Below are positions 4,970-27,190 of a DNA stretch of 64,000 nucleotides, in pieces. Numbering within the stretch: position 1 is the first letter of the stretch; every line of letters begins with the position of its first letter. Source of the stretch: a virus; the IMG/VR virus record IMGVR_UViG_3300024181_000004, positions 2,329-66,328 of that record; one strand, written 5' to 3'. Under the pieces are notes generated by a model. The model was not told the DNA's origin. It ran no database searches and saw nothing but the letters and a program-made list of their open reading frames with translations. The translations under genes and the position numbers were made by a program.

Positions 4970-6967
4970 TTAGTCGTCGGACCGGAAGACGCTGCGTACG
5001 ATGCCGTTCGATCTGAAGTTGCCGACCATCATCGCCGCGACCTCGCGATCGGAAGTCTTGATCAGCGGCGCCATCTTTGCCGCCATGACCGGAACGAAAG
5101 TTTCATCCGGCGCGATGATGGTTGAGAGGTGGATGACCAGCGGCGGGCGGCCTCCGGCACCGCCGCCAGGAATGGAGGTCGGCGCGCTCGGTGACGGGAT
5201 GTAGCTGAGACCTCCGACGCCGAAGTGCGATGACGATGACCCAACAGAAGTGGACGGCGCAGCAGGGGCAAGGCTGGCCGAGCCGGCGAGGCTGCTCGTC
5301 TGGAGGCCCGAGAAGTAGCCGCTGTACCTCTGAAGGATATAGGCGAGAAACCGCTTGACGATCTCCTTGGCCATCATGTTCGCGATGTCCCGGACGATCG
5401 AGTTGAGGAACGACCGGAAGGCGTCCTCTACGCCCTTGATGTTGCCGGTGAAGAGCGAAAAGAAGCCGTCGGTGAGCGCTGACTCCATGTTCGCGGCCAT
5501 GGATTTCGTGAGGTTCTCCATGTTGCGCACGTGGTCGCTGTATTCGATTAGTTGCTGGCGGAGAGCCTTCTGAAAGACGCCCTCCTTTGGGACCAGCGCC
5601 TCCGCGTCGACGAGCAGCCGGCCTTTCGGGATGGCCTTGCGAAACGATTCCTCAGCCTCAACTCGCCGAAGGTATTCGCTCCATTCGGATTGCGGTTCGA
5701 GTAGAGCGGTCATCTCGCGCATGTTGAAGTGCTGGACCGGTAGCAAATTGCGCAGCCGTTGCGCGGCCGCGACGATCCTGGACGCCATCGACTCCGACGC
5801 TCCGCCGGCCATCAACTCCGCTTTCGTCAGGAAATCGATCTGGTCCGTGAGATCTGCGACCGGTCGCCCCGCCGCGGTTGCGAACTGCAACTCAAGGTCG
5901 AGGAGTTGGTGCCTGAAGCCCATAGCCTGCGCGGATTCCGCGAGTGCTCGGTTCTCGGCAAGACGCGCGGCGAGTTGGTCCTTGAGCGCGAAACTGACCT
6001 TCAGCTCTTCGGTGGCCAGCGAGTCGAGCCCGCGGGTGAGGTTCTCGACCTCTTTCCTGTTCCCGGCCATCTGCGCACGCTGAATGTCGGCCTGCGTCGA
6101 GAGCGCCATGATCTGCTTGATCGTCTCGTTCACAGCCTCCGGGTCTTCGATGGAAGGGATGACGATTCGGCTGCGCCTGTCGCGCGGGTTGTTGGTCGGC
6201 AGAGGACCGAAGTGCGCGCCTGCCAGGCTTGGCGACGCCCCAACGAACGGCCGGACGGAGAGATCCGAGAGGGCCCGCACGCTCGCCTTGGCGCCGATGA
6301 TGATCGTGTCGAAGAACTGAGCGATCATCGCCTGCTCGGTCGGGCCCGTGAAGATCTTCACGATGTCCTTCGAGACGTTGATCAGCTCACCGATGACGAG
6401 CGACGCGACGCCGGCCTTGGCCACCACGGTGCCGTACTTGCCGGCCATCTGCGTCAGCGCATTGTTGAGCCCGAGGTACTGGATGCCGGCCTGAGAGGTG
6501 GCGCCCTTCGAGTCGTCGATCGCGATCTTCTGCCGCCGCGCTTCGGCTGTGGCGTTGGCCAACGACTGCGCCACGCGCTGATAGGCAGTCGCCGCGCCGC
6601 CGGTAGCCGCCTGCACCGATCCGAAGGTCGATTCCAATTGCGCGCGCAGCCGCTGCTCGGCCACGATCAACTTATCGACGTCTCGCGCTGATACGCGCGC
6701 GCCGCTGGCGATCTTCTCGTTCACCTCGGCTGCGGTCTGATTCGTCGAGCGCAGGAGTTGCGCGAGCTCCCGGTACTTCGCGATCTGCACGACCGCGCCG
6801 CCGGCACCTTGCGGCATCTGGATCTTCGCGGCCTTGGTGAATTCGTCGGCGATCTGTCGCGCGTTCTGCCGAGTGTCCGAGCGCAACTTGGACATGCCGC
6901 GCTTGAAGTCGGAGTCATCCGCCTTGATGCGGATGAACGCTTCGGCGAGTGTGGCGCGAATGCCCAT
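4970..6967 (-). CDS. Tail tape measure protein (665 aa)
   Basis: Ala-rich helical composition, LAEAFIRIKADDSDF N-terminus, position after tail chaperones. Confidence 0.9.
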   Translation of the reverse strand: MGIRATLAEAFIRIKADDSDFKRGMSKLRSDTRQNARQIADEFTKAAKIQMPQGAGGAVVQIAKYRELAQLLRSTNQTAAEVNEKIASGARVSARDVDKLIVAEQRLRAQLESTFGSVQAATGGAATAYQRVAQSLANATAEARRQKIAIDDSKGATSQAGIQYLGLNNALTQMAGKYGTVVAKAGVASLVIGELINVSKDIVKIFTGPTEQAMIAQFFDTIIIGAKASVRALSDLSVRPFVGASPSLAGAHFGPLPTNNPRDRRSRIVIPSIEDPEAVNETIKQIMALSTQADIQRAQMAGNRKEVENLTRGLDSLATEELKVSFALKDQLAARLAENRALAESAQAMGFRHQLLDLELQFATAAGRPVADLTDQIDFLTKAELMAGGASESMASRIVAAAQRLRNLLPVQHFNMREMTALLEPQSEWSEYLRRVEAEESFRKAIPKGRLLVDAEALVPKEGVFQKALRQQLIEYSDHVRNMENLTKSMAANMESALTDGFFSLFTGNIKGVEDAFRSFLNSIVRDIANMMAKEIVKRFLAYILQRYSGYFSGLQTSSLAGSASLAPAAPSTSVGSSSSHFGVGGLSYIPSPSAPTSIPGGGAGGRPPLVIHLSTIIAPDETFVPVMAAKMAPLIKTSDREVAAMMVGNFRSNGIVRSVFRSDD

Positions 6968-6981
6968 TGGTCTGGAGTCTC

Positions 6982-7290
6982 CTACCTGCGATTCAGGAAA
7001 TCAGCGAGCCCTTCGGGCCCATGGATGATGCGTTCCGGTCGACCTTCGGCAACGCGGAGCAGTTCGTCCTGCATCGCCTTCGCCTCGTCGCCCTTCATGT
7101 ACGGGGCGCCGGCATCGCGGATGCGCGTGAGCGACTCGGCGGCCTCGAGGCGAGGGATCTGCTTGTGGTACGCGCGCAGCTGGCGCAGGGTCATGCGCAT
7201 CATCTCCGTATGCGAGAAAGCGTAGAAGCGAGCCAGACGGCCGAAGAAGAACGCTAGTTCGACGGGGCCGTCGGGCTCTCCACCAAAGGG
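6982..7290 (-). CDS. Tail assembly chaperone, frameshift (gpT-like) extension
   Basis: -1 frame is open from the slippery site at 7290 to TAG at 6982 (...FFFGRLARFYAFSHTEMMRMTLRQLRAY...). Confidence 0.8.
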   Translation of the reverse strand, partial: PFGGEPDGPVELAFFFGRLARFYAFSHTEMMRMTLRQLRAYHKQIPRLEAAESLTRIRDAGAPYMKGDEAKAMQDELLRVAEGRPERIIHGPEGLADFLNRR

Positions 7291-7619
7291 TCAGGTTCGA
7301 GGTCCTCGGCCAGCGTGGAGGCGATCGAGCCGACGACGTTGCCCAACTTGCGCAGCCCGAGGCGCTCGAGCTTTTCGTGGGGAATCGACGGGATGAAGTC
7401 CAAGACGATGCCGCGCATGAATGCGATGTAGTCGGCGTCGGTCGTGAACGCCTCGACGTGGCTCTTGAGATTCTTCACCGCCTCGAGCGTCGGATACGGG
7501 ACGTCGAGCATGCTGAAGAGCGGATACAACTCGCCGCCGATCTTGATCTTCCGCTTCGGGACGGGGTCAAACGCGTCGACGTCGACAACGTTGGCGTTCG
7601 GTTTCACTTCGTCTGCCAT
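7254..7619 (-). CDS. Tail assembly chaperone (gpG-like)
   Basis: Between tail tube and tape measure; start at ATG 7619 (MADEVKPN). Confidence 0.8.
   Translation of the reverse strand: MADEVKPNANVVDVDAFDPVPKRKIKIGGELYPLFSMLDVPYPTLEAVKNLKSHVEAFTTDADYIAFMRGIVLDFIPSIPHEKLERLGLRKLGNVVGSIASTLAEDLEPDPLVESPTAPSN
7284..7290 (-). other. Programmed -1 frameshift slippery heptamer CCCTTTG
   Basis: In-phase X XXY YYZ (gaC CCT TTG) near the end of the chaperone gene, joining the open -1 frame. Confidence 0.85.
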
Positions 7620-7743
7620 GGATGAATTCCCCTTGGACGTTGAATTCCGCGCGGCCAGCGCCACTCACCCGACCAAGACGTGCAGCGGCAGGAGGGGGTC
7701 GCGCTCGCTGGTCTATTCTTCCGCGCCGGCCGCGCGAATCAGG

Positions 7744-8322
7744 TTAGAACGTGAATCCCGACTCGTTGGCGTCGACAATCGTCGTGTCGCCGATCGTCAC
7801 CTTGCGGTACTTGTTGGCGGCGGTATCCGCGTAGCACTTGAGCGTGACGGGGATCAGGCGCTGCTCGTCCGGCGAGAACACCAGCTCGACCGAGCCGGCC
7901 GACGGCGTTCCCTTCCAGACAGTGATGATCTTGTTGGCGTCGGTGGTGACATCGCCGGTCGCGGGATCGATCGGCTTGATGGTCCACTTTCGCGAGACGC
8001 CCAGGAGCGAGAGGCCGACCTTGGCCCGGATCTCCACGGACTGCTTCGTGGAGGTCGTGTCGTCCTGTAGATCCTTTGAGTCGACGAAGGCGCGACGGAT
8101 GTTGACGAGAGAGTACTCGGCGAGGCTGAAGCTGACCTCGACGACGCTGCCCTTCACGATCTCGTTGGCCGGCTCGTCGCCAAGCTCGTCGGCCATCAGT
8201 TCGAGCGTGCGGAGGTCGCGTCTGATGTGCACGCCTCCCTTGATGTGACCGACTTCCGTCGGCGTGCCGCTGATATCGACATACACCCGTGCCGGTCCGC
8301 TCGTCAGAAGTGCGGTATCCAT
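7744..8322 (-). CDS. Major tail tube protein
   Basis: GPARVYV...GHIKGGV N-terminus, beta-rich, 192 aa, after the tail terminator. Confidence 0.8.
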   Translation of the reverse strand: MDTALLTSGPARVYVDISGTPTEVGHIKGGVHIRRDLRTLELMADELGDEPANEIVKGSVVEVSFSLAEYSLVNIRRAFVDSKDLQDDTTSTKQSVEIRAKVGLSLLGVSRKWTIKPIDPATGDVTTDANKIITVWKGTPSAGSVELVFSPDEQRLIPVTLKCYADTAANKYRKVTIGDTTIVDANESGFTF

Positions 8323-8364
8323 GGTGCTCTCTCCTCTTTGTCGCTGAAGTTGAAAGGCTTGGAA

Positions 8365-8772
8365 CTACGCCGGGTAGCTGATCACCCGGACGCTGATGAC
8401 CTGGTGGTGAATCTCGGTGTCTTCCTCGTAGAAGTCGCCCGCCGTGAAGGCGTGGATCTCGCCGAGCCGGCGGCCGGTCATGGGAAGCGGCTGCTTGTCG
8501 AAGAGCGCGATGAGCCGCTCTCCGATCTGGTCGTTCGTGTCGCCGCTCTTGGACCAGACGTGAAGGTCGTAGTCTTCATCGGTGCGCGGAATCTCCGGAT
8601 CGCGCGGCGCGCTCACCCGGTTGTAGGTGACGAGCGCCCTGGTGCCGCTGGCGATCATCTCGACGATAGGCCTCTGCGGCCGGCGGTGGTAGAAGTGATC
8701 GCCGCCGAGGAGGGACACGAGCGTCGCGTCGGCGATGGCCTTCGCCCGCAGACCTTGACGAACTGCGAGCAT
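8365..8772 (-). CDS. Tail terminator/completion protein (DUF3168-like)
   Basis: Real start ATG 8772 (MLAVRQGLRAKAIADATLVSLLG); YDLHVWS motif; synteny. Confidence 0.75.
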   Translation of the reverse strand: MLAVRQGLRAKAIADATLVSLLGGDHFYHRRPQRPIVEMIASGTRALVTYNRVSAPRDPEIPRTDEDYDLHVWSKSGDTNDQIGERLIALFDKQPLPMTGRRLGEIHAFTAGDFYEEDTEIHHQVISVRVISYPA

Positions 8773-9188
8773 CAGCCCTCCCCGGCGAGATCCTGGTCGA
8801 CTTCCTGTTGGAGCTGCGCGAGCGCCGGCCTGAAGAACGGATGCTCGGCCATCTTCGACGTGCCGTACTCGAGGTGCTCCGCGATTTGGGCCCGTCCGCC
8901 TTCTTGCGATACTCCGAAGTCGATTGACCAGACATCGCCCTGCTTCATCGGATCGGCGTGCGTGATGCTCTTGGAAAGCGCCGCGGTGTCGATGGCCGGC
9001 GGCTCCTCTGGTCCGGCTGCCTTGTGCGTGCGACCGCCGCGCTTGTAGACGCGGCCCGACTTCGGGGTGCGGAACAGGCCTTGGATGATCCGCTCGAGCC
9101 GATAGATGATCTTGAGCAACTTCGCCTTGATGATCTTGTCGAGCTCGCGCTCGAACTCCTCGCCGTACCACTTCACATCCTCGGTCAC
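8772..9188 (-). CDS. HK97 gp10-like tail completion protein
   Basis: PPAIDTAALSKSI, LEYGTSKM..PFFRPAL motifs. Confidence 0.85.
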   Translation of the reverse strand: MTEDVKWYGEEFERELDKIIKAKLLKIIYRLERIIQGLFRTPKSGRVYKRGGRTHKAAGPEEPPAIDTAALSKSITHADPMKQGDVWSIDFGVSQEGGRAQIAEHLEYGTSKMAEHPFFRPALAQLQQEVDQDLAGEG

Positions 9189-9751
9189 GGGACGATGACG
9201 CGCGCGAGGTCCGCCTCGACGTGCTGGCCCCGCGGCGCCAGGAAGGTGATGGTGTACCGGACGTCGTCGTCCACGATGCGATCACCAACACGGATCGCGG
9301 TGGCGAGGTCGGTGTTGATGAACATGGTGAAGTTCGCCTGGACGTCCCGGCCATATTCACGTTGGCGTGAGTTACCGGAGCGCGGCTGCACCGCCGCCGG
9401 AACGCCGGTGGCGTAAGAGAACCATTCGCTGGTGACTTCGCCGGAAGTTGAGGTCGCCGGCGCGCCACGCTCGAGCGATACCCGCTTCGGCCGCAGGATA
9501 GATGTCGGCCTGTCGAGGAAACTCCGCACGTTCATGGGGGCGCCGAATCGGGCAGCGTTCACCAGGCCGATCAGCGAAGCGAAAAGCGTCGTCTCGTTCG
9601 CGCCGAAGGCGTCTGCATCGAGCAGACCGACGACGTCGCCGCGGACAAACCACGATGGAGCCCCAAAGGCCTGCACATTGAGCAGACCACCAAAGACCGG
9701 CGACACGTCGCCGAGCGCCGTGGCTTGGAAGGTCGATTCGCCGAGGAGCAT
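9185..9751 (-). CDS. Head closure (stopper) protein, possibly with N-terminal extension
   Basis: IRVGDRIVDDDVRYTI motif; synteny; start could be MNVRS further downstream. Confidence 0.7.
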   Translation of the reverse strand: MLLGESTFQATALGDVSPVFGGLLNVQAFGAPSWFVRGDVVGLLDADAFGANETTLFASLIGLVNAARFGAPMNVRSFLDRPTSILRPKRVSLERGAPATSTSGEVTSEWFSYATGVPAAVQPRSGNSRQREYGRDVQANFTMFINTDLATAIRVGDRIVDDDVRYTITFLAPRGQHVEADLARVIVP

Positions 9752-9754
9752 GGC

Positions 9755-10516
9755 TTACTGTTTCTGCGCCGAGATGTGGGAGAAGTCCTTCACCTCGGAT
9801 ACCGTTGCGTTGCTTGTGTTCTGCGCAAATTGGATGACGAACGTGCCGCCGCCAGCGGCATCGACGATCAACATCCCGTCGATGCAAACCTCCCACAGCA
9901 CAGGGCTCCCGAGAAGTTCGTCGTACCCCACCAGCGGTGTGGCAGGAAAGGCGCTCGTGATGTCGTGCGCCACCGTCACTAGGTTGACGACGGAGTTGAT
10001 CTTGCAATTGAAGGTGGCGTCAGTCAGCGTTGCGGTTCCGGCGAGTCCGATCTTGAGACCGCCCGATCCGGCGAACACGTAGATCCGCCCATAGAGCGTG
10101 TAGGACTCTCCGGCGTCGAGGTCGATGGACAGACCTGGCACATCCGCGAGCGTCGTGTCGCTCGTCTTGTCGAACGGGGCAGTGGTGTGACCCGTCAGCG
10201 GGCGAAGGTCGAGTAGATCCTTCTCGGACACGCCCTGGATGATCCGGTACGTCTTGCCGCCGGTATTGTGGTCGGCGGCCGTCGTGCTTTCCTGAGCCCT
10301 CGTGATCGTGAGCACGTCGCCGGCGATGTTCGTGACGCGCACGATCTCTCGGTCCGGGTCCAGGCTCGCGCGCGCGTAGTCGGTCGAGTTCCAGATCGTC
10401 GCGTTCTTCGGGAACGAGAAGCGCGCGCCGTCGCCGGTGGCCACGGTCAGCGAGGTGGCGACCGAGGAGATGCCCGAAGCGAGGGTCGATTCGGCGAAGT
10501 TTTTGACCGGATCCAT
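9755..10516 (-). CDS. Virion structural protein (two-domain, fibre/collar-like)
   Basis: N-terminal STLASGISSVATSLTV...EIVRVT...LTITRAQEST domain typical of phage structural proteins; C-terminal beta domain similar to 12737-13381. Confidence 0.55.
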   Translation of the reverse strand: MDPVKNFAESTLASGISSVATSLTVATGDGARFSFPKNATIWNSTDYARASLDPDREIVRVTNIAGDVLTITRAQESTTAADHNTGGKTYRIIQGVSEKDLLDLRPLTGHTTAPFDKTSDTTLADVPGLSIDLDAGESYTLYGRIYVFAGSGGLKIGLAGTATLTDATFNCKINSVVNLVTVAHDITSAFPATPLVGYDELLGSPVLWEVCIDGMLIVDAAGGGTFVIQFAQNTSNATVSEVKDFSHISAQKQ

Positions 10517-10528
10517 ATGTCTCTCCTC

Positions 10529-10921
10529 TTAGAGTGTGAAAACGCGATCGGCGCCACTGTCGATGGCCTCGACGACCGAAGCCGCGGAGATCAGCGATCC
10601 CGCTGGGGTGTCGGGGTTGAAGTAAACCAGCGGCGAGATGTTCTCGATGCCTTCGTCGATGCCGATCCAGAAACCGGCGAAGCCGCCAGTTATCGACGGC
10701 CAGGTGATGTCGTCGCAGTCAAGGGTGCCTTCATTCGGCTGGTCGGCCGTCACGCCGGTGAGCACTACGCTCGCCTTGACCTCGCTGCCCAAGTCGGAGA
10801 CGAACTTGTGCGCGACGGAGAAGACGTAGGTGTTCTTCATCAGGTAGGCGGTCGCCGTGCCGAGCGCGAGCAGCGCATCGAGCATGAGCTTCTTCGAATG
10901 CTTGGTGAGCGAGGCGGCCAT
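10529..10921 (-). CDS. Hypothetical virion structural protein
   Basis: 130 aa, coupled within the head-tail operon. Confidence 0.55.
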   Translation of the reverse strand: MAASLTKHSKKLMLDALLALGTATAYLMKNTYVFSVAHKFVSDLGSEVKASVVLTGVTADQPNEGTLDCDDITWPSITGGFAGFWIGIDEGIENISPLVYFNPDTPAGSLISAASVVEAIDSGADRVFTL

Positions 10922-17628: not shown

Positions 17629-18924
17629 CTACGCCGCCGCGGTCTCGAGCTCCGCGAGGGCGGGACCGAAGGAGGTCAGACCGACGCGGGTGATGCCGCG
17701 GATGATGAGCTGGACGTTCTTGAACGCGTCGCCGGCGACGTCGGAGGTGGCGATGGCGAGCTCGCGGCGGGTGCCGTAGATCGCCCACTTCTTGAAGTTG
17801 CCGTACGACACGGTGCGCTTCGACGCCTGGACGGACGTCGAGTACGCCGGCAACCGCTCGGTGAGGAAGTACGGCCGGCCCCAGATCGTGCCCGGCTGGT
17901 TGCCCGTCGGGTCGGTGATGAAGTGCGCCTTGACGTACTCGCCGGTCGAGCTCTTCGTCTTGCGGATGGCGTCGAAGAGAGTCGGCGACAGCAGGTAGGA
18001 GCAGCCGTCGCGCGCGCCGTCGGGGACGGCGGTCTGCAGATCGAGTAGGTCGTCGCCGGTGATGTCGGAGACGTGGGTCTGCCCGGCCGGGAGCACCTTC
18101 GCGACGACCGAGTCGGCGTAGAGCAGGCCGTCGAAGACGTCGGTGCCGCCGTGGGCGGCCGTCTTGCCGGCGATGCCGACGCGATCGATCTCGAGCGAGA
18201 TGCACTCGCGGATCAGATCAGCGATGAGCTGGCCGACGTCGGGGTTCGAGTCCTCGATGAGGGTGAGTGGAACGGGGATGAGCGCGGCGAGCAGCTTGGC
18301 CTCGATGGAGGTCTTGCTGAACGTCGGGAAGCTCTCGGTGATGGGCGAGTTCTCGTTCGGCCAGTAGGCCTGCATCTGCGAGAGGACCGCGCCGATGTTG
18401 ACCTTCTGCGCGCCCATCGGCCACGGCCGCGCGATCTGCGGATAGAGACCGGTGGTGGGGATGAGGCGCAGCACCTCGCTCGCGACTTCGGTCGGAACGA
18501 GGTAGCCGCCCTCGGAGTTCGTGCCGGTCGAGACCGCGCGGATCTTCTCGATGTCCTTGTCGCGGAGGGCCCGGACGAGCGTGATCAGCTTGTCGGCGCC
18601 GTCGCGCGAGACGCTCGGCTGGATGCTGCCGTCGAGGCCGCGATGGAAACCGAACTCGCGGTCGTACGTCATCTGGCGCTCGAACTTCTCGAAGCGCTTC
18701 ATCAGATCGGCCGCGGCTTCCTCGGCGCCGGTGCGGAGCTTGCGCTCCTCGGCGATCTCGGAACCGAGCTTGGCCTTGACGTCATCGACGGCGGTGTTGA
18801 TGAGGCCTGCGAGGAACGAGCGGCCCTCGGGCGAACCGAGCAACTCGGCGATGCGCTCCTTGGTCGTCAGCTCCTTGGCGACGCCCAGGACGACGTCGTC
18901 GAACTTCATTTCGGCTGCGGGCAT
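17629..18924 (-). CDS. HK97-fold major capsid protein with N-terminal delta domain (431 aa)
   Basis: EGGYLVPTEVASEV, ENSPITES.PTF..., IWGRPYFL, YGNFK motifs. Confidence 0.95.
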   Translation of the reverse strand: MPAAEMKFDDVVLGVAKELTTKERIAELLGSPEGRSFLAGLINTAVDDVKAKLGSEIAEERKLRTGAEEAAADLMKRFEKFERQMTYDREFGFHRGLDGSIQPSVSRDGADKLITLVRALRDKDIEKIRAVSTGTNSEGGYLVPTEVASEVLRLIPTTGLYPQIARPWPMGAQKVNIGAVLSQMQAYWPNENSPITESFPTFSKTSIEAKLLAALIPVPLTLIEDSNPDVGQLIADLIRECISLEIDRVGIAGKTAAHGGTDVFDGLLYADSVVAKVLPAGQTHVSDITGDDLLDLQTAVPDGARDGCSYLLSPTLFDAIRKTKSSTGEYVKAHFITDPTGNQPGTIWGRPYFLTERLPAYSTSVQASKRTVSYGNFKKWAIYGTRRELAIATSDVAGDAFKNVQLIIRGITRVGLTSFGPALAELETAAA

Positions 18925-19000: not shown

Positions 19001-20638
19001 CTACGAGCGGGTCACGCGAAGAACGTCGCCGCCGTAGAGGTCCTGCTGGTCCTGCGGGGTGGACCGCCCTCCGGCGCCAGCGTCCGGAGCGTCCGATGCA
19101 GAGACGCGAATGAGTTGACCCGCACCCTCTTCTCTGCGGTCAGAGGGGGAGCCAGATTTCACGCGAATGAAGTGGCGGGCGGTATCGGACGTGCCGTCTT
19201 CCGCCGGCGTTGCGTCGCCGGTGTCGGCGATGCCGAGCATCACCGTGCAGGTGTCAAGCGCCTGCGTGAGCGACGTGTGGATGGCGCGGATGCGCGCCTG
19301 GTTCTTTGCCGAGAGCTCGGCGCCGATGCGTGTGGACTGCGCGATCGCGCGCTCGGTGAGCATCGTCTTGATCGCCTCGTCGGCCTCGACGTCGGCGATG
19401 AACTTCCGCACCTGGTCGGCCGCGACGGCTGCGGTGTCGGCCGGCTGATTGTCGGGATACCAGTAGTCCTGGTAGCGCAGTAGGCGATCGATGCCCCACA
19501 TGATGTCCATGACGCGGATCGAACACCAGTTCCGCAGCGCGTCGTGCTCGGCCGAGTCCCAGCCGGCGAGGGCGATGGTCAGCTCGGTGGAGAGCGCGTC
19601 GATTTCGGCAGCGATGGTCTGCTGCTCGGCCGTCGCTGCGTCGCCGGTGAGGACCTCGTCGCAGTTGCAGCAGTCGGGCATGGCGCCGCAGAGGTCGCAG
19701 TAGTCGACGCAATTCGGCGGGCAGCACGAGTCGATGGGGTAGCAGTAGCGCATCGCCTCGCGCGTGTTGGTGACGATCAGGCGGAGACGGGCGAGCGGCA
19801 TGCGTTCGCCAGCGGCAGCCACCGGCTGGACGCCGAACGCGGAACGCAGATCGGCGTAGATCTTCACCTTGTCGGACAGGATGAGTGGCTCACCGTTCCG
19901 ATGGGCCGCCAACGCTGCGAGCACGCGCTCGCGGATCTCCTGACCTTCATGCTGGGAGTATTCACCCTCGATGATGACCACCGGCGGCAGCGGGGTCGCG
20001 CCGTGCTCGATGACGATCGGCGAGATGCGGAAGCCGAGCATCTTGGCCATGCCGTCCGTGAAGGTGCCGGCTGAACGCGCACGCTCGATCGCCTTCGCGA
20101 TGGCGTTGCGATTCGACGGCACGTTGACGAAGCTGATCTCAGTCAACTCCTGATCCTCGTACTCGACGTTCTCGGAGAAGTACGTCGGCATCTCGGTGGC
20201 CTGGCGATCCCGCCACTTCTTCGGCAGGAAGGCGACGGAGGCGGCGAGCGGCCCGCCGAAGTCGCGAAACCACTCCCACAGGAACTGCGCGAGGTTGTCG
20301 CGCATGTTCTTCCACGGGCCGAGCGCGAAACGGATGTCGAACTCCCACGCTCCGCCGGTGGAACGGAGTGAGACCGTCTGGCCGAGCGCCGGGTACTCTT
20401 CCACGACACCGTGGGACCAAAGTGCCACGGGGTTACGAAGATAGGCGGCCGTTTGCCAGCCGCGCGGGTTGATGACCGAGCCGTGCCGGTCCTCGCTGCC
20501 GTCGGTGCCGATGATGGTCACGACGGGGTTGTCGTTGCTTGCGCCTTCGGCCGCGCGGATTTGCCCGAAGATGGGCATGATCCTCTCGGATCCGATCTCC
20601 ATCGTGCCGCGCTTGGGGTGCGGAAGGATCTCAGGCAT
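19001..20638 (-). CDS. HK97-type prohead maturation protease with long C-terminal extension (545 aa)
   Basis: DRHGSVI.P.G, PVALWSH, ELTEISFVNVPSN motifs. Confidence 0.9.
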   Translation of the reverse strand: MPEILPHPKRGTMEIGSERIMPIFGQIRAAEGASNDNPVVTIIGTDGSEDRHGSVINPRGWQTAAYLRNPVALWSHGVVEEYPALGQTVSLRSTGGAWEFDIRFALGPWKNMRDNLAQFLWEWFRDFGGPLAASVAFLPKKWRDRQATEMPTYFSENVEYEDQELTEISFVNVPSNRNAIAKAIERARSAGTFTDGMAKMLGFRISPIVIEHGATPLPPVVIIEGEYSQHEGQEIRERVLAALAAHRNGEPLILSDKVKIYADLRSAFGVQPVAAAGERMPLARLRLIVTNTREAMRYCYPIDSCCPPNCVDYCDLCGAMPDCCNCDEVLTGDAATAEQQTIAAEIDALSTELTIALAGWDSAEHDALRNWCSIRVMDIMWGIDRLLRYQDYWYPDNQPADTAAVAADQVRKFIADVEADEAIKTMLTERAIAQSTRIGAELSAKNQARIRAIHTSLTQALDTCTVMLGIADTGDATPAEDGTSDTARHFIRVKSGSPSDRREEGAGQLIRVSASDAPDAGAGGRSTPQDQQDLYGGDVLRVTRS

Positions 20639-21045: not shown

Positions 21046-24000
21046 CTACGCCGCCAACAACTCCGCCACCTTTGCGAGCACACGCCCGCGCTGATCGTTG
21101 AAGTATTTCTGCAACGCGCCCTTGAACTGCTTCTCCGTCGAGCGCGAGGTGACGACGACTGACGCGCGCCAGTAGTTCGCGCGCTGCTTCTCGGTCGGTA
21201 GGATCGAGCTGCGGTTGCCGCCGACCTGCGCGGGCAGACTCACACAGCGGCATCCCATGACTTCCTTCTTCTCGCCTTGCGGGTCCTGCGGGTACCGGCA
21301 GCCGTTGGAGAACGCGTCGCCCAGCGTCACGATCTCCCCGTCGACGCCAGTGTTCGGCGCGTGCGACTCGCGGACGTTGTCGTCGCGGCTGGATAGCCAC
21401 TCGAGCCCGTCGACGCCCTCTTCCTGGAACTGGATAAACCGCCCGCCGTTGAGCGCGGTCCCGTTTTCCTGGCGCGCGATGAGTTTCGCCTGCGTGCCGC
21501 GCAGGTTGTACACGTCGCGGATGTCGTTGGCGATGATCTCGGGTGTCGTGCCGGCGTCGATGCCGGACTTGACCGCCTGGAGGATCTGCTCGGCCGTCGT
21601 CTTGTTGACGCTGGTGATCAGGTTTGCCCGGGTCTTGAGGAACTCCACTACGTACGGGTTGTCGATGGGCACGATGCTCGTGATCGCCGCCTTCGGCTTG
21701 ACCAACGCGAGCGCCTGCTTCGCGCCCTCCTTGAGCATTCGGATGTGGAAGCGCCGCACGAGGCCCTGCAACTCCTTGTCGTCGCCGCGGATGATCTGGA
21801 GAATCGCCTGCAGCGCTGCCTCGTCGGCCGCGCGCGTGGCGACGGCCGGCATCTCGCTCACGACGCGAATGCGCGAGATGCGCCGCGTCTTCACCGCGGC
21901 CGCGAGACTGATCGGCGTCAGGTTGCCGTCGGTGTCGCTGAACTGGATCTCGTCGAACTTCACCACCACGCCAGCCAGCCCGTCGTCGCCGGCGAACTCC
22001 GCCCCACGGCCGGCTTTCACGTAGGCCAGCGTTGCGTGCGGGACGTAGGCGGCGTCCGTGCTCTTGGCCCCGAGGTTGCCGTTGCCGATCACGCCGTTGA
22101 GCAGCACCAGATCCGGCGAGTCGATGTCGAGGACCACGACGTCGTAATCGACCGCCTTGCCGCGGAGCGCCTTCACGTCCTCGGCTGTGAACACGCTCGT
22201 CTTTCCGAGCGTCATCGAGGCGCCACCGCGGTCCACCATCTCGAGCACGGAGTCCGAATTCGCCAGCGCCTCGGCGACTTGCTCGGCCGTCACGCTCGGA
22301 TCGAGTCCGTAGAAGACCGTGACGTGCGGATCAGTCTCGCGCCCCTTCTCGGCGATTGCGTCGTCGGGAACCGCCGCGGCCATGGCCACGAGTTTCTTCG
22401 CCGCGTCGCCTTCGAGGTTGACCTGCGTCGAAGCGTAATCGAACGGCCCAGCCATCCGCACCGAGTCAGCGATCGCCGCGACAACGCGGATGTACCGCGG
22501 CTGCGGAGCGGGCGTCGTCGTCGACTGCGTCGGCTCCGGCGGTGCGGCGGCCGCTGGGTTCGGGTTCGGTGTCGTCGGGACATCTGACTTGCCGGCCGAG
22601 CCCATGATCTGTTCGGCCTGCGCGTCGCTGAGGTTGAAGAGCACCTTCAATTGACCGATGCCGGAATCGCGCGGGATCTCGCCGGCGGCGACGGCCACCA
22701 CAATGGCGGTAACCGCGGTGACCTGCGCGCCGTTGAGCAGCACGCCGGTTGCGGCATCGGCTGCGACTGGTGCCGCCTGGTCGGGCGACGGCGCGGCTGT
22801 CGGTGCTGCACCGAGAGCCGGAGCGACTTCCGACGGAGCGCTGATGATGTCCGTGACCGGCACATCCATTGCCGCCCCGAAGGCGACGTCTGATCCTTCG
22901 AACGACTCCATCTCCACGCCCGTGGTCCTCGCCGCCACATCCCACGGGACGCGCGCGGTGGCCATCTCTTTGGCCGAGGTGATGCGTGCGCGCTTCGCTT
23001 CCTGTAGCGCCTCGACATCGTCGGTGGCGAGATCGGTCCAGACGTCCGCCTCCGCGCCCAGGAGGTACGTGTCGAGCGTGGCGCAGAAGAACATGATGGC
23101 GGGGATCGCGATGATCTCCCACCACGCGAGGACCTGCGACTGCGCGTTCGCGTAGCTCGCGTCGTCCTTGCCCACAAAAAGCGGCGGCGTGCGGCCGGCG
23201 ATGATCTCGGCGCGCGCCATCTCGCGGCCCTGTGAGAACTCGGCGTCCTTCTGGTTGGCCTTGAGGTCCTGGATCGTCCAGTCGCCGCCTAGCACGAGAG
23301 GAGCACCGCTCTTGCCGACGAGTCGCGCGCGTAGCCGGTCTTCGAACTGGTCCTTTTCGGGCTCGTTGAGTTCGTCCTTCGTGACGAAGGCGATGTTCGG
23401 CGCGATCCCGCGGTTGAAGAACTCGAAGTTGTAGCGCGCGGCGGCGATGTCGGCCGAGATGGCCAGGCGCTTCGAGTCGAGCGACGAACGACCGCGCGCC
23501 GGCTCGAGCACGGTTCTTGTGAACGGGTTGAAGGGCGGTCGATTGCTCAGCGGGTCAAACTGCGGGAAGTGCACCACATCATCGCGGTCGGCGAAGTACG
23601 GCTTCCCGTCGATCGAGATCTCCCAACCGAGGAACTCCGCTGTCGCCTGCCGCATGACAGGCCGCACCTCGTTTTTGCGGAAGATCGTGATCGACTCGAT
23701 ATCTCCACGGTTCACCGCGCCCGGTTTCGGCTTGCCGTGGCGCAGCAGGTACCAGAACACCTCGCCGTCGAAGTCGTAGAGAGCGAAGGTCTCGTACTTC
23801 AGCCGGTACTCGCTGAGCTTCGCCGCCGGATTCGGCCGCGACATCAGATCGATGAGCCAGTGCTGCTGGACCCGCTCCTTTTCTTCGCCCGGCTGCCGAA
23901 ACATTCGGAACGGCCTGGCCGCCAGCGCCGCGGCGAAAGCGTGGATCGTCGGCTGAATCCACGGGCTCTCGCGATACGCGCGGGCATTCGAGATCAGGCC

Positions 24001-24150
24001 CGAATACTGCCCCGCCGAGCCGCTGAGGACCTCCTCGAGCTGCCCCCACGTTATCGGCGCCGGCGCCGAGCGAGCGAAGGACGGCATGTTCGGACGGCGC
24101 AACGCGCTGCGCTCGGCCGATGCGCGGCTCACGCCGCCGGGGAAGATCAT
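21046..24150 (-). CDS. Portal protein fused to a 2H phosphoesterase domain and a MuF (minor head morphogenesis) domain (1034 aa)
   Basis: HK97-type portal N-terminus (DVVHF, NFEFFNRGIAP, KDAEFSQGR); PHVTV and PHATL motifs; MuF motifs LIARQE, EWLSSRDDNVRESH, GCRC. Confidence 0.9.
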   Translation of the reverse strand: MIFPGGVSRASAERSALRRPNMPSFARSAPAPITWGQLEEVLSGSAGQYSGLISNARAYRESPWIQPTIHAFAAALAARPFRMFRQPGEEKERVQQHWLIDLMSRPNPAAKLSEYRLKYETFALYDFDGEVFWYLLRHGKPKPGAVNRGDIESITIFRKNEVRPVMRQATAEFLGWEISIDGKPYFADRDDVVHFPQFDPLSNRPPFNPFTRTVLEPARGRSSLDSKRLAISADIAAARYNFEFFNRGIAPNIAFVTKDELNEPEKDQFEDRLRARLVGKSGAPLVLGGDWTIQDLKANQKDAEFSQGREMARAEIIAGRTPPLFVGKDDASYANAQSQVLAWWEIIAIPAIMFFCATLDTYLLGAEADVWTDLATDDVEALQEAKRARITSAKEMATARVPWDVAARTTGVEMESFEGSDVAFGAAMDVPVTDIISAPSEVAPALGAAPTAAPSPDQAAPVAADAATGVLLNGAQVTAVTAIVVAVAAGEIPRDSGIGQLKVLFNLSDAQAEQIMGSAGKSDVPTTPNPNPAAAAPPEPTQSTTTPAPQPRYIRVVAAIADSVRMAGPFDYASTQVNLEGDAAKKLVAMAAAVPDDAIAEKGRETDPHVTVFYGLDPSVTAEQVAEALANSDSVLEMVDRGGASMTLGKTSVFTAEDVKALRGKAVDYDVVVLDIDSPDLVLLNGVIGNGNLGAKSTDAAYVPHATLAYVKAGRGAEFAGDDGLAGVVVKFDEIQFSDTDGNLTPISLAAAVKTRRISRIRVVSEMPAVATRAADEAALQAILQIIRGDDKELQGLVRRFHIRMLKEGAKQALALVKPKAAITSIVPIDNPYVVEFLKTRANLITSVNKTTAEQILQAVKSGIDAGTTPEIIANDIRDVYNLRGTQAKLIARQENGTALNGGRFIQFQEEGVDGLEWLSSRDDNVRESHAPNTGVDGEIVTLGDAFSNGCRYPQDPQGEKKEVMGCRCVSLPAQVGGNRSSILPTEKQRANYWRASVVVTSRSTEKQFKGALQKYFNDQRGRVLAKVAELLAA

Positions 24151-24320
24151 TGCGTGATGAACTCGATCTTCGCGCCGCGCGCGAGGAACGCGCCGATGTT
24201 CGACCAGACGGCCTGCGACTCACCGGCCCCGAAGATGCACGCCGCAAAGAGCAATGCATGCGCGGCGCCGATGCGCCAGCGCGGAACCGAGACGGTGACG
24301 TGCGCATTGCCCATCTTCAT
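24147..24320 (-). CDS. Small hypothetical protein (57 aa)
   Basis: Hand-translated; ATGA overlaps on both sides. Confidence 0.45.
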   Translation of the reverse strand: MKMGNAHVTVSVPRWRIGAAHALLFAACIFGAGESQAVWSNIGAFLARGAKIEFITQ

Positions 24321-24514
24321 CTCGTCTCCAGTCCTGCGTTGACGGCGGCACTTGCGTCGAGCTCGGCGTGCCAGAACTCACCGCAGCGCGCGCATGTGAT
24401 CTCGACGCCCGGAATGACGACCTTCCCGCTCGTGACGAGCGCAGGCCCGATCGTGCTGAGGGTTACGACGGCGTGGCTGCAGAAAAAGCGCCGGAGCGCC
24501 GCTGGAATCTTCAA
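24317..24514 (-). CDS. Small putative zinc-binding protein
   Basis: TTG start overlapping the terL stop; FCSH...CARCG. Confidence 0.45.
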   Translation of the reverse strand: MKIPAALRRFFCSHAVVTLSTIGPALVTSGKVVIPGVEITCARCGEFWHAELDASAAVNAGLETR

Positions 24515-26085
24515 TGCACCCAGGCCTTTCGCTTCTTGTGCATCAGGTGATGAATCCCTTGCGTTGCTGCCACGACATCGTCCCCGTGCGACCCAGCCGG
24601 GATTGATCCGTTCGGGAACTTCGCCGCGTTCTCGATGAAGCGCAGCACCCAACGCCTGTCCTCGCGCACCGCGCTGCCGGCCGGCACGCGACCGTCCTTG
24701 TCGGATCGGGCGTGCCATGGGTTCGGCAGCCAGACGTTGCCGGCTTCCACGTAGGGTGCTACCGAGTGCGCCACGGCTTCCGCGCCGCCGTCGGGGTTGA
24801 CGCCGATGATCCCCGGGATCTTGCCCTTGAGCGTGCTGATGACCGCCGGTCCGTTGGCCTTGTCCTCGACGAGCTTCGTCGCGTATGGGTGTCGGTCGGA
24901 GAAGGTGACGAAGGCTTCGCACGTTCCAGGGAAATCCAACTGCGCGTAGACCTCGTCGGGCTTCATGAAGCAATTGGCTTCCAACTTGCCCCATGCCTGG
25001 CCGGCAACGAAGTTCGATGTCTTCAGGCCCTTGAAGGCCATGTCCCACGACTGCAGCTCGAAGTCGAACTTCTCCGGCAGCCGCGGCTCGACGTCGTCGT
25101 TGTAGAAGCGCCAACTCGCGCGCTTGAGAATCCCGCCTTCTGCTGGCGCCGGCATCTGCTCGAGCTGCCCTGCTGCCGCATAGGAGCCGAGGTTCGCTTC
25201 CCACTCCGCCACGACCTCTTCGGTGAATCGCGCTGGGTGAAGCAGTTCGCCAGTCTCGGTCCGCGGATCGCTCCAGCCAACTACCGTGCGCTTCGACCGT
25301 TTTGGATCGAAGTGCATGGGCATCAGCAGGTGTTCGTACCCGCCCTGCGCAAGCACCTGGCCAGATAGGTCGTGCTCGTGAAGCCGCTGCATCACCACGA
25401 TGATCGCGGACTTCGCCGGATCGTTGAGCCGGGTGGTGATCGCCTCCTTGAACGTCGTGATCGACGACTCGCGTTCGGCGTCCGAGTGCGCGCTGTCGCG
25501 GTCATGCGGGTCATCGACGATGACGTCGTCACCGCCTTCACCCATCACTCCGCCTTCGAAGCCGAAGGCTATGCGGTAGCCGCTGCGGTCATTCTCGAAG
25601 CGGATCTTCTGGTTCTGATCCGACGTCATCTCGAAGCCGTCTGGATCGCCCCAGTCGCTACCATCGACGAGGTTGAACCCTCGGCCCCACCGCTCTCGGT
25701 ACCACGGCGACTGCACCAGCCGCCGCATCTTGAGGTTGTCGCGAATAGACAACTTCAACGCATACGAGCCGCAGAGGAACTTGTGCGCCGGCCGATGAAT
25801 CCACGTCCACGCGGGGTACATCACCGACACGGTCGTCGACTTCAGAAACCGCGGCGGGATGTTGATCAGGAGTCGCCGGATCTCACCGCGGTGCACCGCC
25901 TCGAGATGCTCGCAGATCGCGCCGATATGCCAGTTGTCGGCGAAGGGCGTCGCCGGCTCTACGACGTGCCAGGCCTGGGCTACGAATTCGTGAAGGCTAG
26001 TTGACGCTCGGCGCCGGAGTTTCTCGCGAAGCAGCAGCAACTTCCGCTCTTTGAGCGTCCGCGAGCTCTCGTTCGAGTTGTTCAT
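24511..26085 (-). CDS. terL: Terminase large subunit
   Basis: Walker A-like NIPPRFLKST, Walker B VIVDDPH, QRLHEHDL, nuclease SWDMAFK, VEDKANG, HGDDVVAATQ. Confidence 0.97.
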   Translation of the reverse strand: MNNSNESSRTLKERKLLLLREKLRRRASTSLHEFVAQAWHVVEPATPFADNWHIGAICEHLEAVHRGEIRRLLINIPPRFLKSTTVSVMYPAWTWIHRPAHKFLCGSYALKLSIRDNLKMRRLVQSPWYRERWGRGFNLVDGSDWGDPDGFEMTSDQNQKIRFENDRSGYRIAFGFEGGVMGEGGDDVIVDDPHDRDSAHSDAERESSITTFKEAITTRLNDPAKSAIIVVMQRLHEHDLSGQVLAQGGYEHLLMPMHFDPKRSKRTVVGWSDPRTETGELLHPARFTEEVVAEWEANLGSYAAAGQLEQMPAPAEGGILKRASWRFYNDDVEPRLPEKFDFELQSWDMAFKGLKTSNFVAGQAWGKLEANCFMKPDEVYAQLDFPGTCEAFVTFSDRHPYATKLVEDKANGPAVISTLKGKIPGIIGVNPDGGAEAVAHSVAPYVEAGNVWLPNPWHARSDKDGRVPAGSAVREDRRWVLRFIENAAKFPNGSIPAGSHGDDVVAATQGIHHLMHKKRKAWVH

Positions 26086-26614: not shown

Positions 26615-27190
26615 CTACGCGACCGCCTCTTCGTCCGTGGCCTCGCTCGAGAGCCGGTCGATGATTGCGCGGGCCATCGCGCGGAGGTCCTCGTTCCAGA
26701 GGCCCCGCCTTTCGACCACTCCCGTGAACTCCTCGACATCGTGGCCGAGGATCGCCCACACCGGTGAGCCGTCCTTGTGCATCTTCGGCGTCTCGCCGTC
26801 ATCCTCTCTCGCCACGGAGCAGTGCGAGATTTCGTGGTCGACGAGCGCCATCTTCTGCTCGAGGTCGAGCCCTGACCAGATGTTCCGGTCGATGAGGATG
26901 AGGAAGTCCGGCAACTCTTCGCCGAACTGCGGGAGCACGCGGAGGATGGCCCACTTCACGAACCGGCCCCATCGCTTGTCCGCCTGCAGGATGCGCTCGA
27001 CGAGGATGGCCTCGGCCCACGTCACCTTGCCGTGCCGCCGGATCTCGTCGTCGCGGAAGATGTAGCCGATCCGCGCGTCGCCTAGGTGAGCGTGCTCGCC
27101 GACCTGTTCGATGATCAGCGCGCCGAGGTCCCGGGCTTCTGCTGCTTCCGAGTACTCGTCGGCGTGGATCTCATTGAAGGCGAGCTTCAT
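26615..27190 (-). CDS. Putative phage metallopeptidase
   Basis: LVDHEISHC (HExxH) and GHDVEEF motifs. Confidence 0.8.
   Translation of the reverse strand: MKLAFNEIHADEYSEAAEARDLGALIIEQVGEHAHLGDARIGYIFRDDEIRRHGKVTWAEAILVERILQADKRWGRFVKWAILRVLPQFGEELPDFLILIDRNIWSGLDLEQKMALVDHEISHCSVAREDDGETPKMHKDGSPVWAILGHDVEEFTGVVERRGLWNEDLRAMARAIIDRLSSEATDEEAVA

Follow-up and report, generated by a model that had tools for sequence, protein, structure and literature searches.

An intact 2H phosphodiesterase domain between the portal and MuF domains of an uncultured phage head protein: candidate capsid-loaded cargo

What would a phage gain from building an enzyme into the middle of a head-assembly protein? 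The question is raised by an open reading frame (ORF) at positions 21046..24150 of a 64,000-nucleotide stretch of viral DNA, hereafter the window (positions 2,329 to 66,328 of the IMG/VR record IMGVR_UViG_3300024181_000004). The ORF, which lies on the minus strand, as do all features of the window described below, is open throughout and encodes a protein of 1034 amino acids (aa) in which an HK97-type portal, a linker, a 2H phosphoesterase domain and a MuF domain follow one another. The answer that we favour, and to which we give an even chance of being correct, is that the 2H domain is a capsid-loaded and probably protease-released phosphodiesterase that leaves the head along with the DNA and breaks down nucleotide immune messengers.

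The anatomy of the protein, as the original prediction had read it from the letters alone, was borne out by Pfam, PHROGs and the positions of the catalytic motifs. The portal domain (22972..23946, aa 69–393) matches Phage_portal (PF04860) with 103.5 bits (cut-off 39.1; E = 1.7e-29) and phrog_2662 with E = 3.5e-58; a match to TIGR01537 (E = 1.3e-8) stays under its cut-off. With a Pfam score above the gathering score and a gene directly after that for the large terminase subunit, this region belongs with the portal proteins. It is followed by a linker (aa 395–570) in which Ala, Pro, Val and Thr are abundant, with a small helical module of ~55 aa (22576..22743, aa ~470–525) inside its A/P/T-rich sequence, and then by the 2H phosphoesterase domain (21883..22467, aa 562–756). 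The chain ends in a MuF/SPP1 gp7-like head morphogenesis domain (21223..21774, aa 793–976), assigned by phrog_2468 (aa 793–976, E = 5.6e-29), by TIGR01641 (E = 7e-10) and by Phage_Mu_F (PF04233, aa 855–970), whose 39.8 bits exceed the cut-off of 29.6 and place it within the MuF family. The start codon of the fusion overlaps the stop codon of an upstream 57-aa ORF (24147..24320) in an ATGA arrangement; this small ORF separates the terminase gene from the portal gene, and related loci carry a gene for 64–103 aa in the same place.

A fusion of this kind could be an artefact, in which a frameshift or a chimeric assembly has joined separate portal, 2H and MuF genes, and the original prediction had itself named a sequencing error of this sort as a reason for rejection. 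The source, a 70,206-bp IMG/VR viral contig from a soil metagenome that is about 87% complete, was assembled at a modest depth of about 10x, which lends the suspicion some ground. However, a Logan contig from the probable source run, a separate assembly of the same sample, covers the full ORF with 0 differences, and the portal–2H–MuF order is common to eight homologues from other samples. Because the Logan contig covers the ORF and the homologues repeat the order, the fusion is not an artefact. Among the homologues, P0002, P0005, P0006, P0009 and P0011 are 54–61% identical to the window protein (P0001) and have the same domain order, as do P0023 and P0025, which are 30–34% identical to P0001 and have a more divergent portal region. 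The helical module that precedes the 2H domain is present in P0006, P0023, P0025, P0040 and the P0004 fragment and is not found in P0002, P0005, P0009 or P0011; since it accompanies the 2H domain beside the more divergent portal regions (P0023, P0025 and P0040), it may belong to a mobile 2H cassette. In tblastn searches of cultured phages, no portal–2H–MuF relative was found, only portal–MuF fusions and isolated 2H genes. Two scans of genome contigs gave no prophage relative, the second yielding one distant 2H match in an uncultured metagenome-assembled genome.

The 2H domain could also have decayed into a non-catalytic spacer. Its first catalytic motif, H-V-T (22318..22326, aa 609–611), and its second, H-A-T (22030..22038, aa 705–707), lie exactly where they had been predicted and are the sole H-x-[TS] tripeptides in the 1034-aa protein, giving it the two motifs of a 2H enzyme; the second stands inside a conserved Y-x-P-H-x-T-L-A-Y block. 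In an alignment of 52 copies of the domain, His and Thr of the first motif (H48 and T50) and His of the second (H144) are invariant, and T146 is at least 90% conserved; G54, F93, D109, Y141, P143 and Y149 are invariant as well. An AlphaFold model computed from this alignment has a predicted local distance difference test score (pLDDT) of 94.4 and a predicted template modelling score (pTM) of 0.89, and its significant structural matches are all 2H phosphoesterases, with the two-lobed alpha+beta fold of that group. By active site and modelled fold, the domain is an intact 2H phosphodiesterase. The invariant catalytic residues and the confident model rule out a dead spacer, as the Logan contig and the homologues rule out a joining artefact, and we leave these two explanations together with only a very small residual probability.

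If the enzyme is real, is its place in the portal chain incidental? The 2H domains closest to that of the window (45–60% identity) occur in two architectures, either portal–2H–MuF or within the prohead protease. In the latter, the carrier has 570–820 aa, its first ~215 residues are 39–64% identical to the protein P0174 encoded next to the fusion in the window, and the 2H domain follows them as an insert. P0174 (19001..20638, 545 aa) is a prohead serine protease with the protease at aa ~1–200 and a long scaffold-like C-terminal part. It has the prohead-protease fold, which a fold search alone identified; Pfam, NCBIfam and PDB sequence searches for a protease gave nothing. Sister phages share the gene order terminase, small ORF, portal–MuF, protease and capsid. 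The 2H domain is in the portal–MuF protein in the window, L004 and L006, in the protease in L001, L005 (the same as L007) and the P0010 contig, in neither protein in L009, and in both proteins in no phage, although this count of mutual exclusivity is small because the IMG/VR scan for further sister phages gave 7 loci. The sizes of the carriers agree with an insertion: the base size is 773–798 aa for portal–MuF and 536–545 aa for the protease, and the insert adds about 200–250 aa to whichever protein carries it. Since the cargo shifts between two capsid-internal proteins, selection appears to maintain its location inside the capsid, and judged by sequence comparison the idea of capsid loading gains new support from this alternation.

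Two of the sister loci have further features of their own. L009 (3904–5950), a more distant sister, combines a protease gene of about the same length with a head module without any 2H domain, and could serve as a natural 'no cargo' control. In L004, which carries P0006, an IS605 OrfB/TnpB (Cas12f-like) gene (5807–6997) lies directly upstream of the portal fusion (7001–10870), and this fusion, of 1289 aa, ends C-terminally in a second MuF-like region.

How might the enzyme leave its carrier? Two short motifs, Y-I-R-V-V (22480..22494, aa 553–557) upstream of the 2H domain and R-I-R-V-V (21859..21873, aa 760–764) downstream of it, are candidate prohead-protease sites, and they contain the sole two [IFV]-R-[VI] tripeptides of P0001. 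Across 20 close homologues, such tripeptides number 32 in the 2400 aa that flank the 2H domain against 3 in the other 14490 aa (2 of these 3 in a protease tail), counts that are not independent because the homologues are related. The flanks of 153 distant family members are without this enrichment. I-R-V-type motifs also occur in two or three copies in most protease C-terminal tails, in P0174 as F-I-R-V-K (19157–19171), L-I-R-V-S (19100–19114) and V-L-R-V-T (19010–19024), and at the portal–MuF junction of phages that have no insert. In the major capsid protein of the window, I-R-A-V (18532–18543) directly precedes the conserved beginning of the mature capsid region, and in six related capsid proteins, including those of L001, L004, L005, L006 and L008, the capsid delta-domain boundary bears a related [I/V/A]-R-A-[V/L]-S motif. 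L009 has no I-R-V motif at its portal–MuF junction or capsid boundary.

The simplest reading of these motifs is that they are prohead-protease sites at which the chain would be split to give the portal, a free 2H enzyme and the MuF part. Together, the carrier alternation and the flanking motifs suggest capsid-loaded cargo that is released by the protease. The original prediction had placed the enzyme in the head at portal stoichiometry; this holds at synthesis, when all parts are one chain, but the chain is probably cut by the prohead protease. A wider proposal, which we regard as possible and advance tentatively, treats the 2H domain as a mobile cassette of capsid cargo, bracketed by the prohead-protease sites of this clade, that can be inserted in either portal–MuF or protease–scaffold, cut free and ejected; the site consensus would be roughly [I/V/F]-R-[V/I/A]-[V/L/K/S] followed by a small residue. 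If this is true, the cassette would be the first defined HK97-like phage system for loading an anti-signalling phosphodiesterase at a set dose, with the enzyme active before phage gene expression.

The domain family and part of this idea have precedents. An exhaustive HMMER search returned 2617 cluster representatives, 1200 of them at E <= 1e-10, most within proteins of 500 to >6000 aa that are mainly big phage multidomain proteins. Among 64 mid-sized members, 17 have one of three portal families (PF04860, PF06381 or PF06074), 8 have MuF (PF04233), and others are joined to ART, InPase or histidine-phosphatase domains. The passages on this clade in Iyer et al. 2017 (PMC5512222) describe a 'polyvalent protein' group of 2H domains with fusions to MuF and portal and without any association with RNA ligases, and propose for it a Usb1-like RNase role or the degradation of defence-related nucleotides. 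In the corresponding passages of Iyer et al. 2022 (PMC9503650), a packaged and injected counter to nucleotide signalling is stated explicitly. The window domain, fused to both MuF and portal in a late virion module, belongs to this head-cargo clade. Both the fusion type and the proposed anti-signalling role are therefore already published (2017, 2022), and what is new here is the portal/protease carrier alternation and the flanking I-R-V-type motifs, neither of which appears in those passages. No experimental test of any 2H–MuF or 2H–portal fusion was found in the searched literature.

On what would such an enzyme act? When the family profile was searched against PDB sequences, the best match was a member of the Acb1 group, PDE-9 (9q2g, E = 1.9e-7); plant CPDase gave 1e-4, YjcG 1.6e-3 and FBB1 Acb1 0.018, and no LigT/ThpR chain in the PDB was matched at E <= 10, except drCPDase at 0.54. 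The profile alignment with PDE-9 has D-S-P-D-L...L-N and H-P-x-Y-x-x-H-x-T-L-A-Y blocks in common. PDE-9 of Burkholderia phage BCSR5 cleaves 3'3'-cyclic GMP–AMP (3'3'-cGAMP), as reported by Doherty et al. 2025 (bioRxiv 10.1101/2025.08.21.671373), whose supplements do not mention portal, MuF or the relevant phages. Sequence identity of the window domain is 20–21% to Acb1, about 18% to PDE-9 and 15% to LigT. From profile and model, the domain fits best into a phage 2H clade of its own, to which PDE-9 is the nearest relative that has been characterised, and by sequence the family is related to Acb1 yet distinct.

These elements can be assembled into a proposed course of events. The gene would encode a head-assembly polyprotein whose portal part forms the dodecameric portal vertex, with a C-terminal extension that points into the capsid and carries first the 2H domain and then MuF; with a dodecameric portal and both domains on the chain, each procapsid would hold each of these domains in about 12 copies. 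Cuts at the I-R-V-type sites on either side of the 2H domain, probably made by the prohead protease that the next gene encodes, would free an enzyme of ~21 kDa inside the head; like the T4 internal proteins and Alt, this enzyme would be ejected together with the DNA. Once in the new host, it would most likely hydrolyse nucleotide immune messengers by the metal-independent HxT/HxT chemistry of Acb1 and PDE-9. Candidates are the cyclic di- or oligonucleotides of CBASS (antiphage signalling based on cyclic oligonucleotides) or of type III CRISPR (clustered regularly interspaced short palindromic repeats), or 2'-5'-linked signals. Late in infection, unassembled precursor could act likewise in the producing cell.

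Several observations weigh against this reading, in addition to the relatedness of the homologues behind the motif counts. What the analysis shows is the fusion, an active site that is intact, the folds of the 2H domain and of the neighbouring protease, and the alternation of carriers; cleavage, ejection and substrate are all steps that we infer. In L006, the protease tail (gene from L006:6501) has I-S-V, I-S-A and L-S-V in place of I-R-V/L-R-V, a pattern that the cleavage-site hypothesis does not explain, and its 2H–MuF junction is without the motif, though the capsid boundary keeps V-R-A-V, so the motif is not universal. An enzyme that is never delivered would fit these points: it might be tethered to the portal, trapped in the head or merely co-expressed, and work late in the producing cell, where assembly products can trigger abortive-infection signalling. 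The gene does lie within the late head operon, no ejection signal is known and the cleavage sites are candidates. However, co-expression alone is hard to reconcile with a 2H domain that alternates between portal–MuF and protease and, across the family, has at least three portal families as fusion partners. MuF, moreover, repeatedly serves as the carrier for effectors that are predicted to be injected. We consider non-delivery improbable.

Part of the evidence on the substrate runs against the messenger reading. The Acb1 model PF23474 gives 16.6 bits with the domain alone (E = 0.0065) and 11.3 bits with the whole protein (E = 0.28) against a cut-off of 27, leaving the window domain outside that family, although 47 of the 52 relatives touch the model (best E = 1.5e-9). 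LigT_PEase (PF02834) excludes it as well, with 17.6 bits against 23.3 and matches in 41 of the 52 relatives. PF13563 gives 24.4 bits (E = 3.4e-5) against a gathering score of 27, with all 52 family members matching at E <= 0.01 (best 1.6e-16), so that the window sequence stays under the gathering score in all three; with the whole protein, 2_5_RNA_ligase2 matches aa 606–717 (E = 7e-4), likewise under the Pfam cut-off. By fold, LigT/ThpR structures rank first (Z = 14–14.7 over 157–162 residues), ahead of Acb1 (12.0) and PDE-9 (11.2), although the gap to Acb1 stems in part from the longer alignable length. Matches of the fold in Swiss-Prot are RNA 2',3'-cyclic phosphodiesterases and Usb1. Among viral structure models, 2H domains from uncultured phages and from Maribacter phage Colly_1 lie nearest, and canonical Acb1 comes only at ranks 43–50. 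An Acb1 proper would combine a compact core of 140–165 aa with Acb1 as its closest structural neighbour among 2H enzymes, a combination that the domain does not show. The original prediction had called the domain Acb1-like and proposed a structural comparison with Acb1 and LigT as a check. The evidence divides: fold Z sides with LigT/ThpR (14.7 versus 12.0) and the sequence profile with PDE-9. The label is thus a loose one, favoured by the profile match to a member of the Acb1 group but borne out neither at the Pfam cut-off nor in the ranking by fold. In the study that characterised PDE-9 (10.1101/2025.08.21.671373), moreover, substrate range varies by structural group, and two viral 2H groups cleaved 0 of 18 messengers. 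Because the groups differ in this way, we can only infer the substrate of the window domain, and because a viral contig from a soil metagenome comes with no host assignment, the target defence system cannot be named.

The similarity in fold to LigT/ThpR and Usb1 raises the alternative that the packaged enzyme acts on RNA, either by ThpR/LigT-like processing of ends left by anticodon nucleases or toxin RNases or by Usb1-like early trimming of host RNAs. However, the family profile that finds PDE-9 misses the LigT/ThpR chains apart from drCPDase, identity to Acb1 exceeds that to LigT, and the Z gap is partly one of length. RNA ligase, RtcB and KptA models (PF09414, PF01139, PF09511 and PF01885) gave no match in the 70-kb record, which is ~87% complete, with an uninformative control for PF09511, and the clade's lack of association with RNA ligases, as reported in the passages of Iyer et al. 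cited above, points the same way. We therefore regard a role on RNA as unlikely, if less so than non-delivery, and retain degradation of immune messengers after capsid delivery as the preferred reading. Were the enzyme to act on RNA ends instead, the locus would encode an injected RNA-processing activity.

In the searched literature, the anti-CBASS and anti-cyclic-oligoadenylate nucleases are all free proteins made after infection, and a pre-packaged signal-degrading nuclease, predicted since 2017, has no test that we found there. The locus offers a clean minimal case, with a single cargo domain, intact catalytic residues and an identifiable protease adjoining. The natural 'swap' variants, in which the carrier is portal–MuF or protease, provide material for studying how cargo is addressed to HK97-type capsids and how enzymes are delivered with DNA.

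The fusion gene sits within a canonical HK97-like head module. Upstream of it lies the gene for the large terminase subunit (24511..26085; phrog_38, E = 7.9e-77), and beyond the protease gene lies that for the HK97-type major capsid protein (17629..18924; TIGR01554, E = 8.8e-47), in which PF05065 begins at aa 139. A PhageMetallopep gene (PF18894, E = 3.3e-28; 26615–27190) is located upstream of the terminase genes and in the same place in L001, L005 and the P0010 contig. In P0174, aa ~298–327 (19658–19747) contain 11 Cys in about 30 residues, which is unusual for a scaffold region; a match of this cluster to a ranthipeptide family is at chance level (E = 0.14). The protease model also matches two clusters of the AlphaFold database (AFDB), A7ILP1 (371 aa, 'Anti-CBASS protein Acb1', residues 160–339) and A0A5C7PXN4 (801 aa, 'NUDIX hydrolase', residues 27–188), and enzyme–protease fusions thus seem widespread beyond the clade of the window.

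How does this arrangement compare with known systems? PDE-9 (BCSR5; PDB 9Q2G/9Q2Y; 10.1101/2025.08.21.671373), placed in structural group 3 with T4 Acb1, is free-standing, has 165 aa and has 73 residues between its His residues, whereas the window domain, at ~18% identity, has about 185 aa and 96 residues. Acb1 of T4 and FBB1 (PF23474; PDB 7T26/7T27; Hobbs et al. 2022, PMC9117128) is small and soluble and has a C-terminal lid; the searched literature describes for it neither a fusion to a head protein, as in the window, nor packaging in the virion. LigT/ThpR (1IUH, 4QAK/5LDM) has the highest fold Z and the same full-size two-lobed 2H architecture, but these are cellular enzymes rather than virion cargo, and the window domain is 15% identical to them and has no RNA-repair gene context.

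For delivery, T4 offers a parallel. Its internal proteins and Alt are capsid cargo that the prohead protease gp21 processes and that is ejected together with the DNA. They are targeted by a short N-terminal capsid-targeting sequence, whereas here the cargo is covalently fused to portal–MuF or protease, and the gp21 cleavage motif is L/I-x-E, whereas the candidate motif here is of the I-R-V type. Alt is also cited in PMC5512222. Actinobacteriophage portal–MuF and protease–MuF fusions (Microbacterium clusters EA/EB/EG, PMC7302621), together with those of Bacillus phage Silence and Geobacillus phage GBK2, show that cultured phages make portal and MuF as one gene product; these fusions are without a 2H insert and are <35% identical to the window protein. 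The 2H–MuF and 2H–portal proteins in the passages of Iyer et al. have the same domain family, carriers, late-gene context and absence of an RNA-ligase link, and for them, too, packaging and injection of an enzyme that degrades nucleotide immune signals or works as an RNase were predicted. The window differs from what those passages describe in placing the 2H domain between portal and MuF in one chain, in having sister phages that use the protease as the carrier, and in the candidate sites that flank the enzyme.

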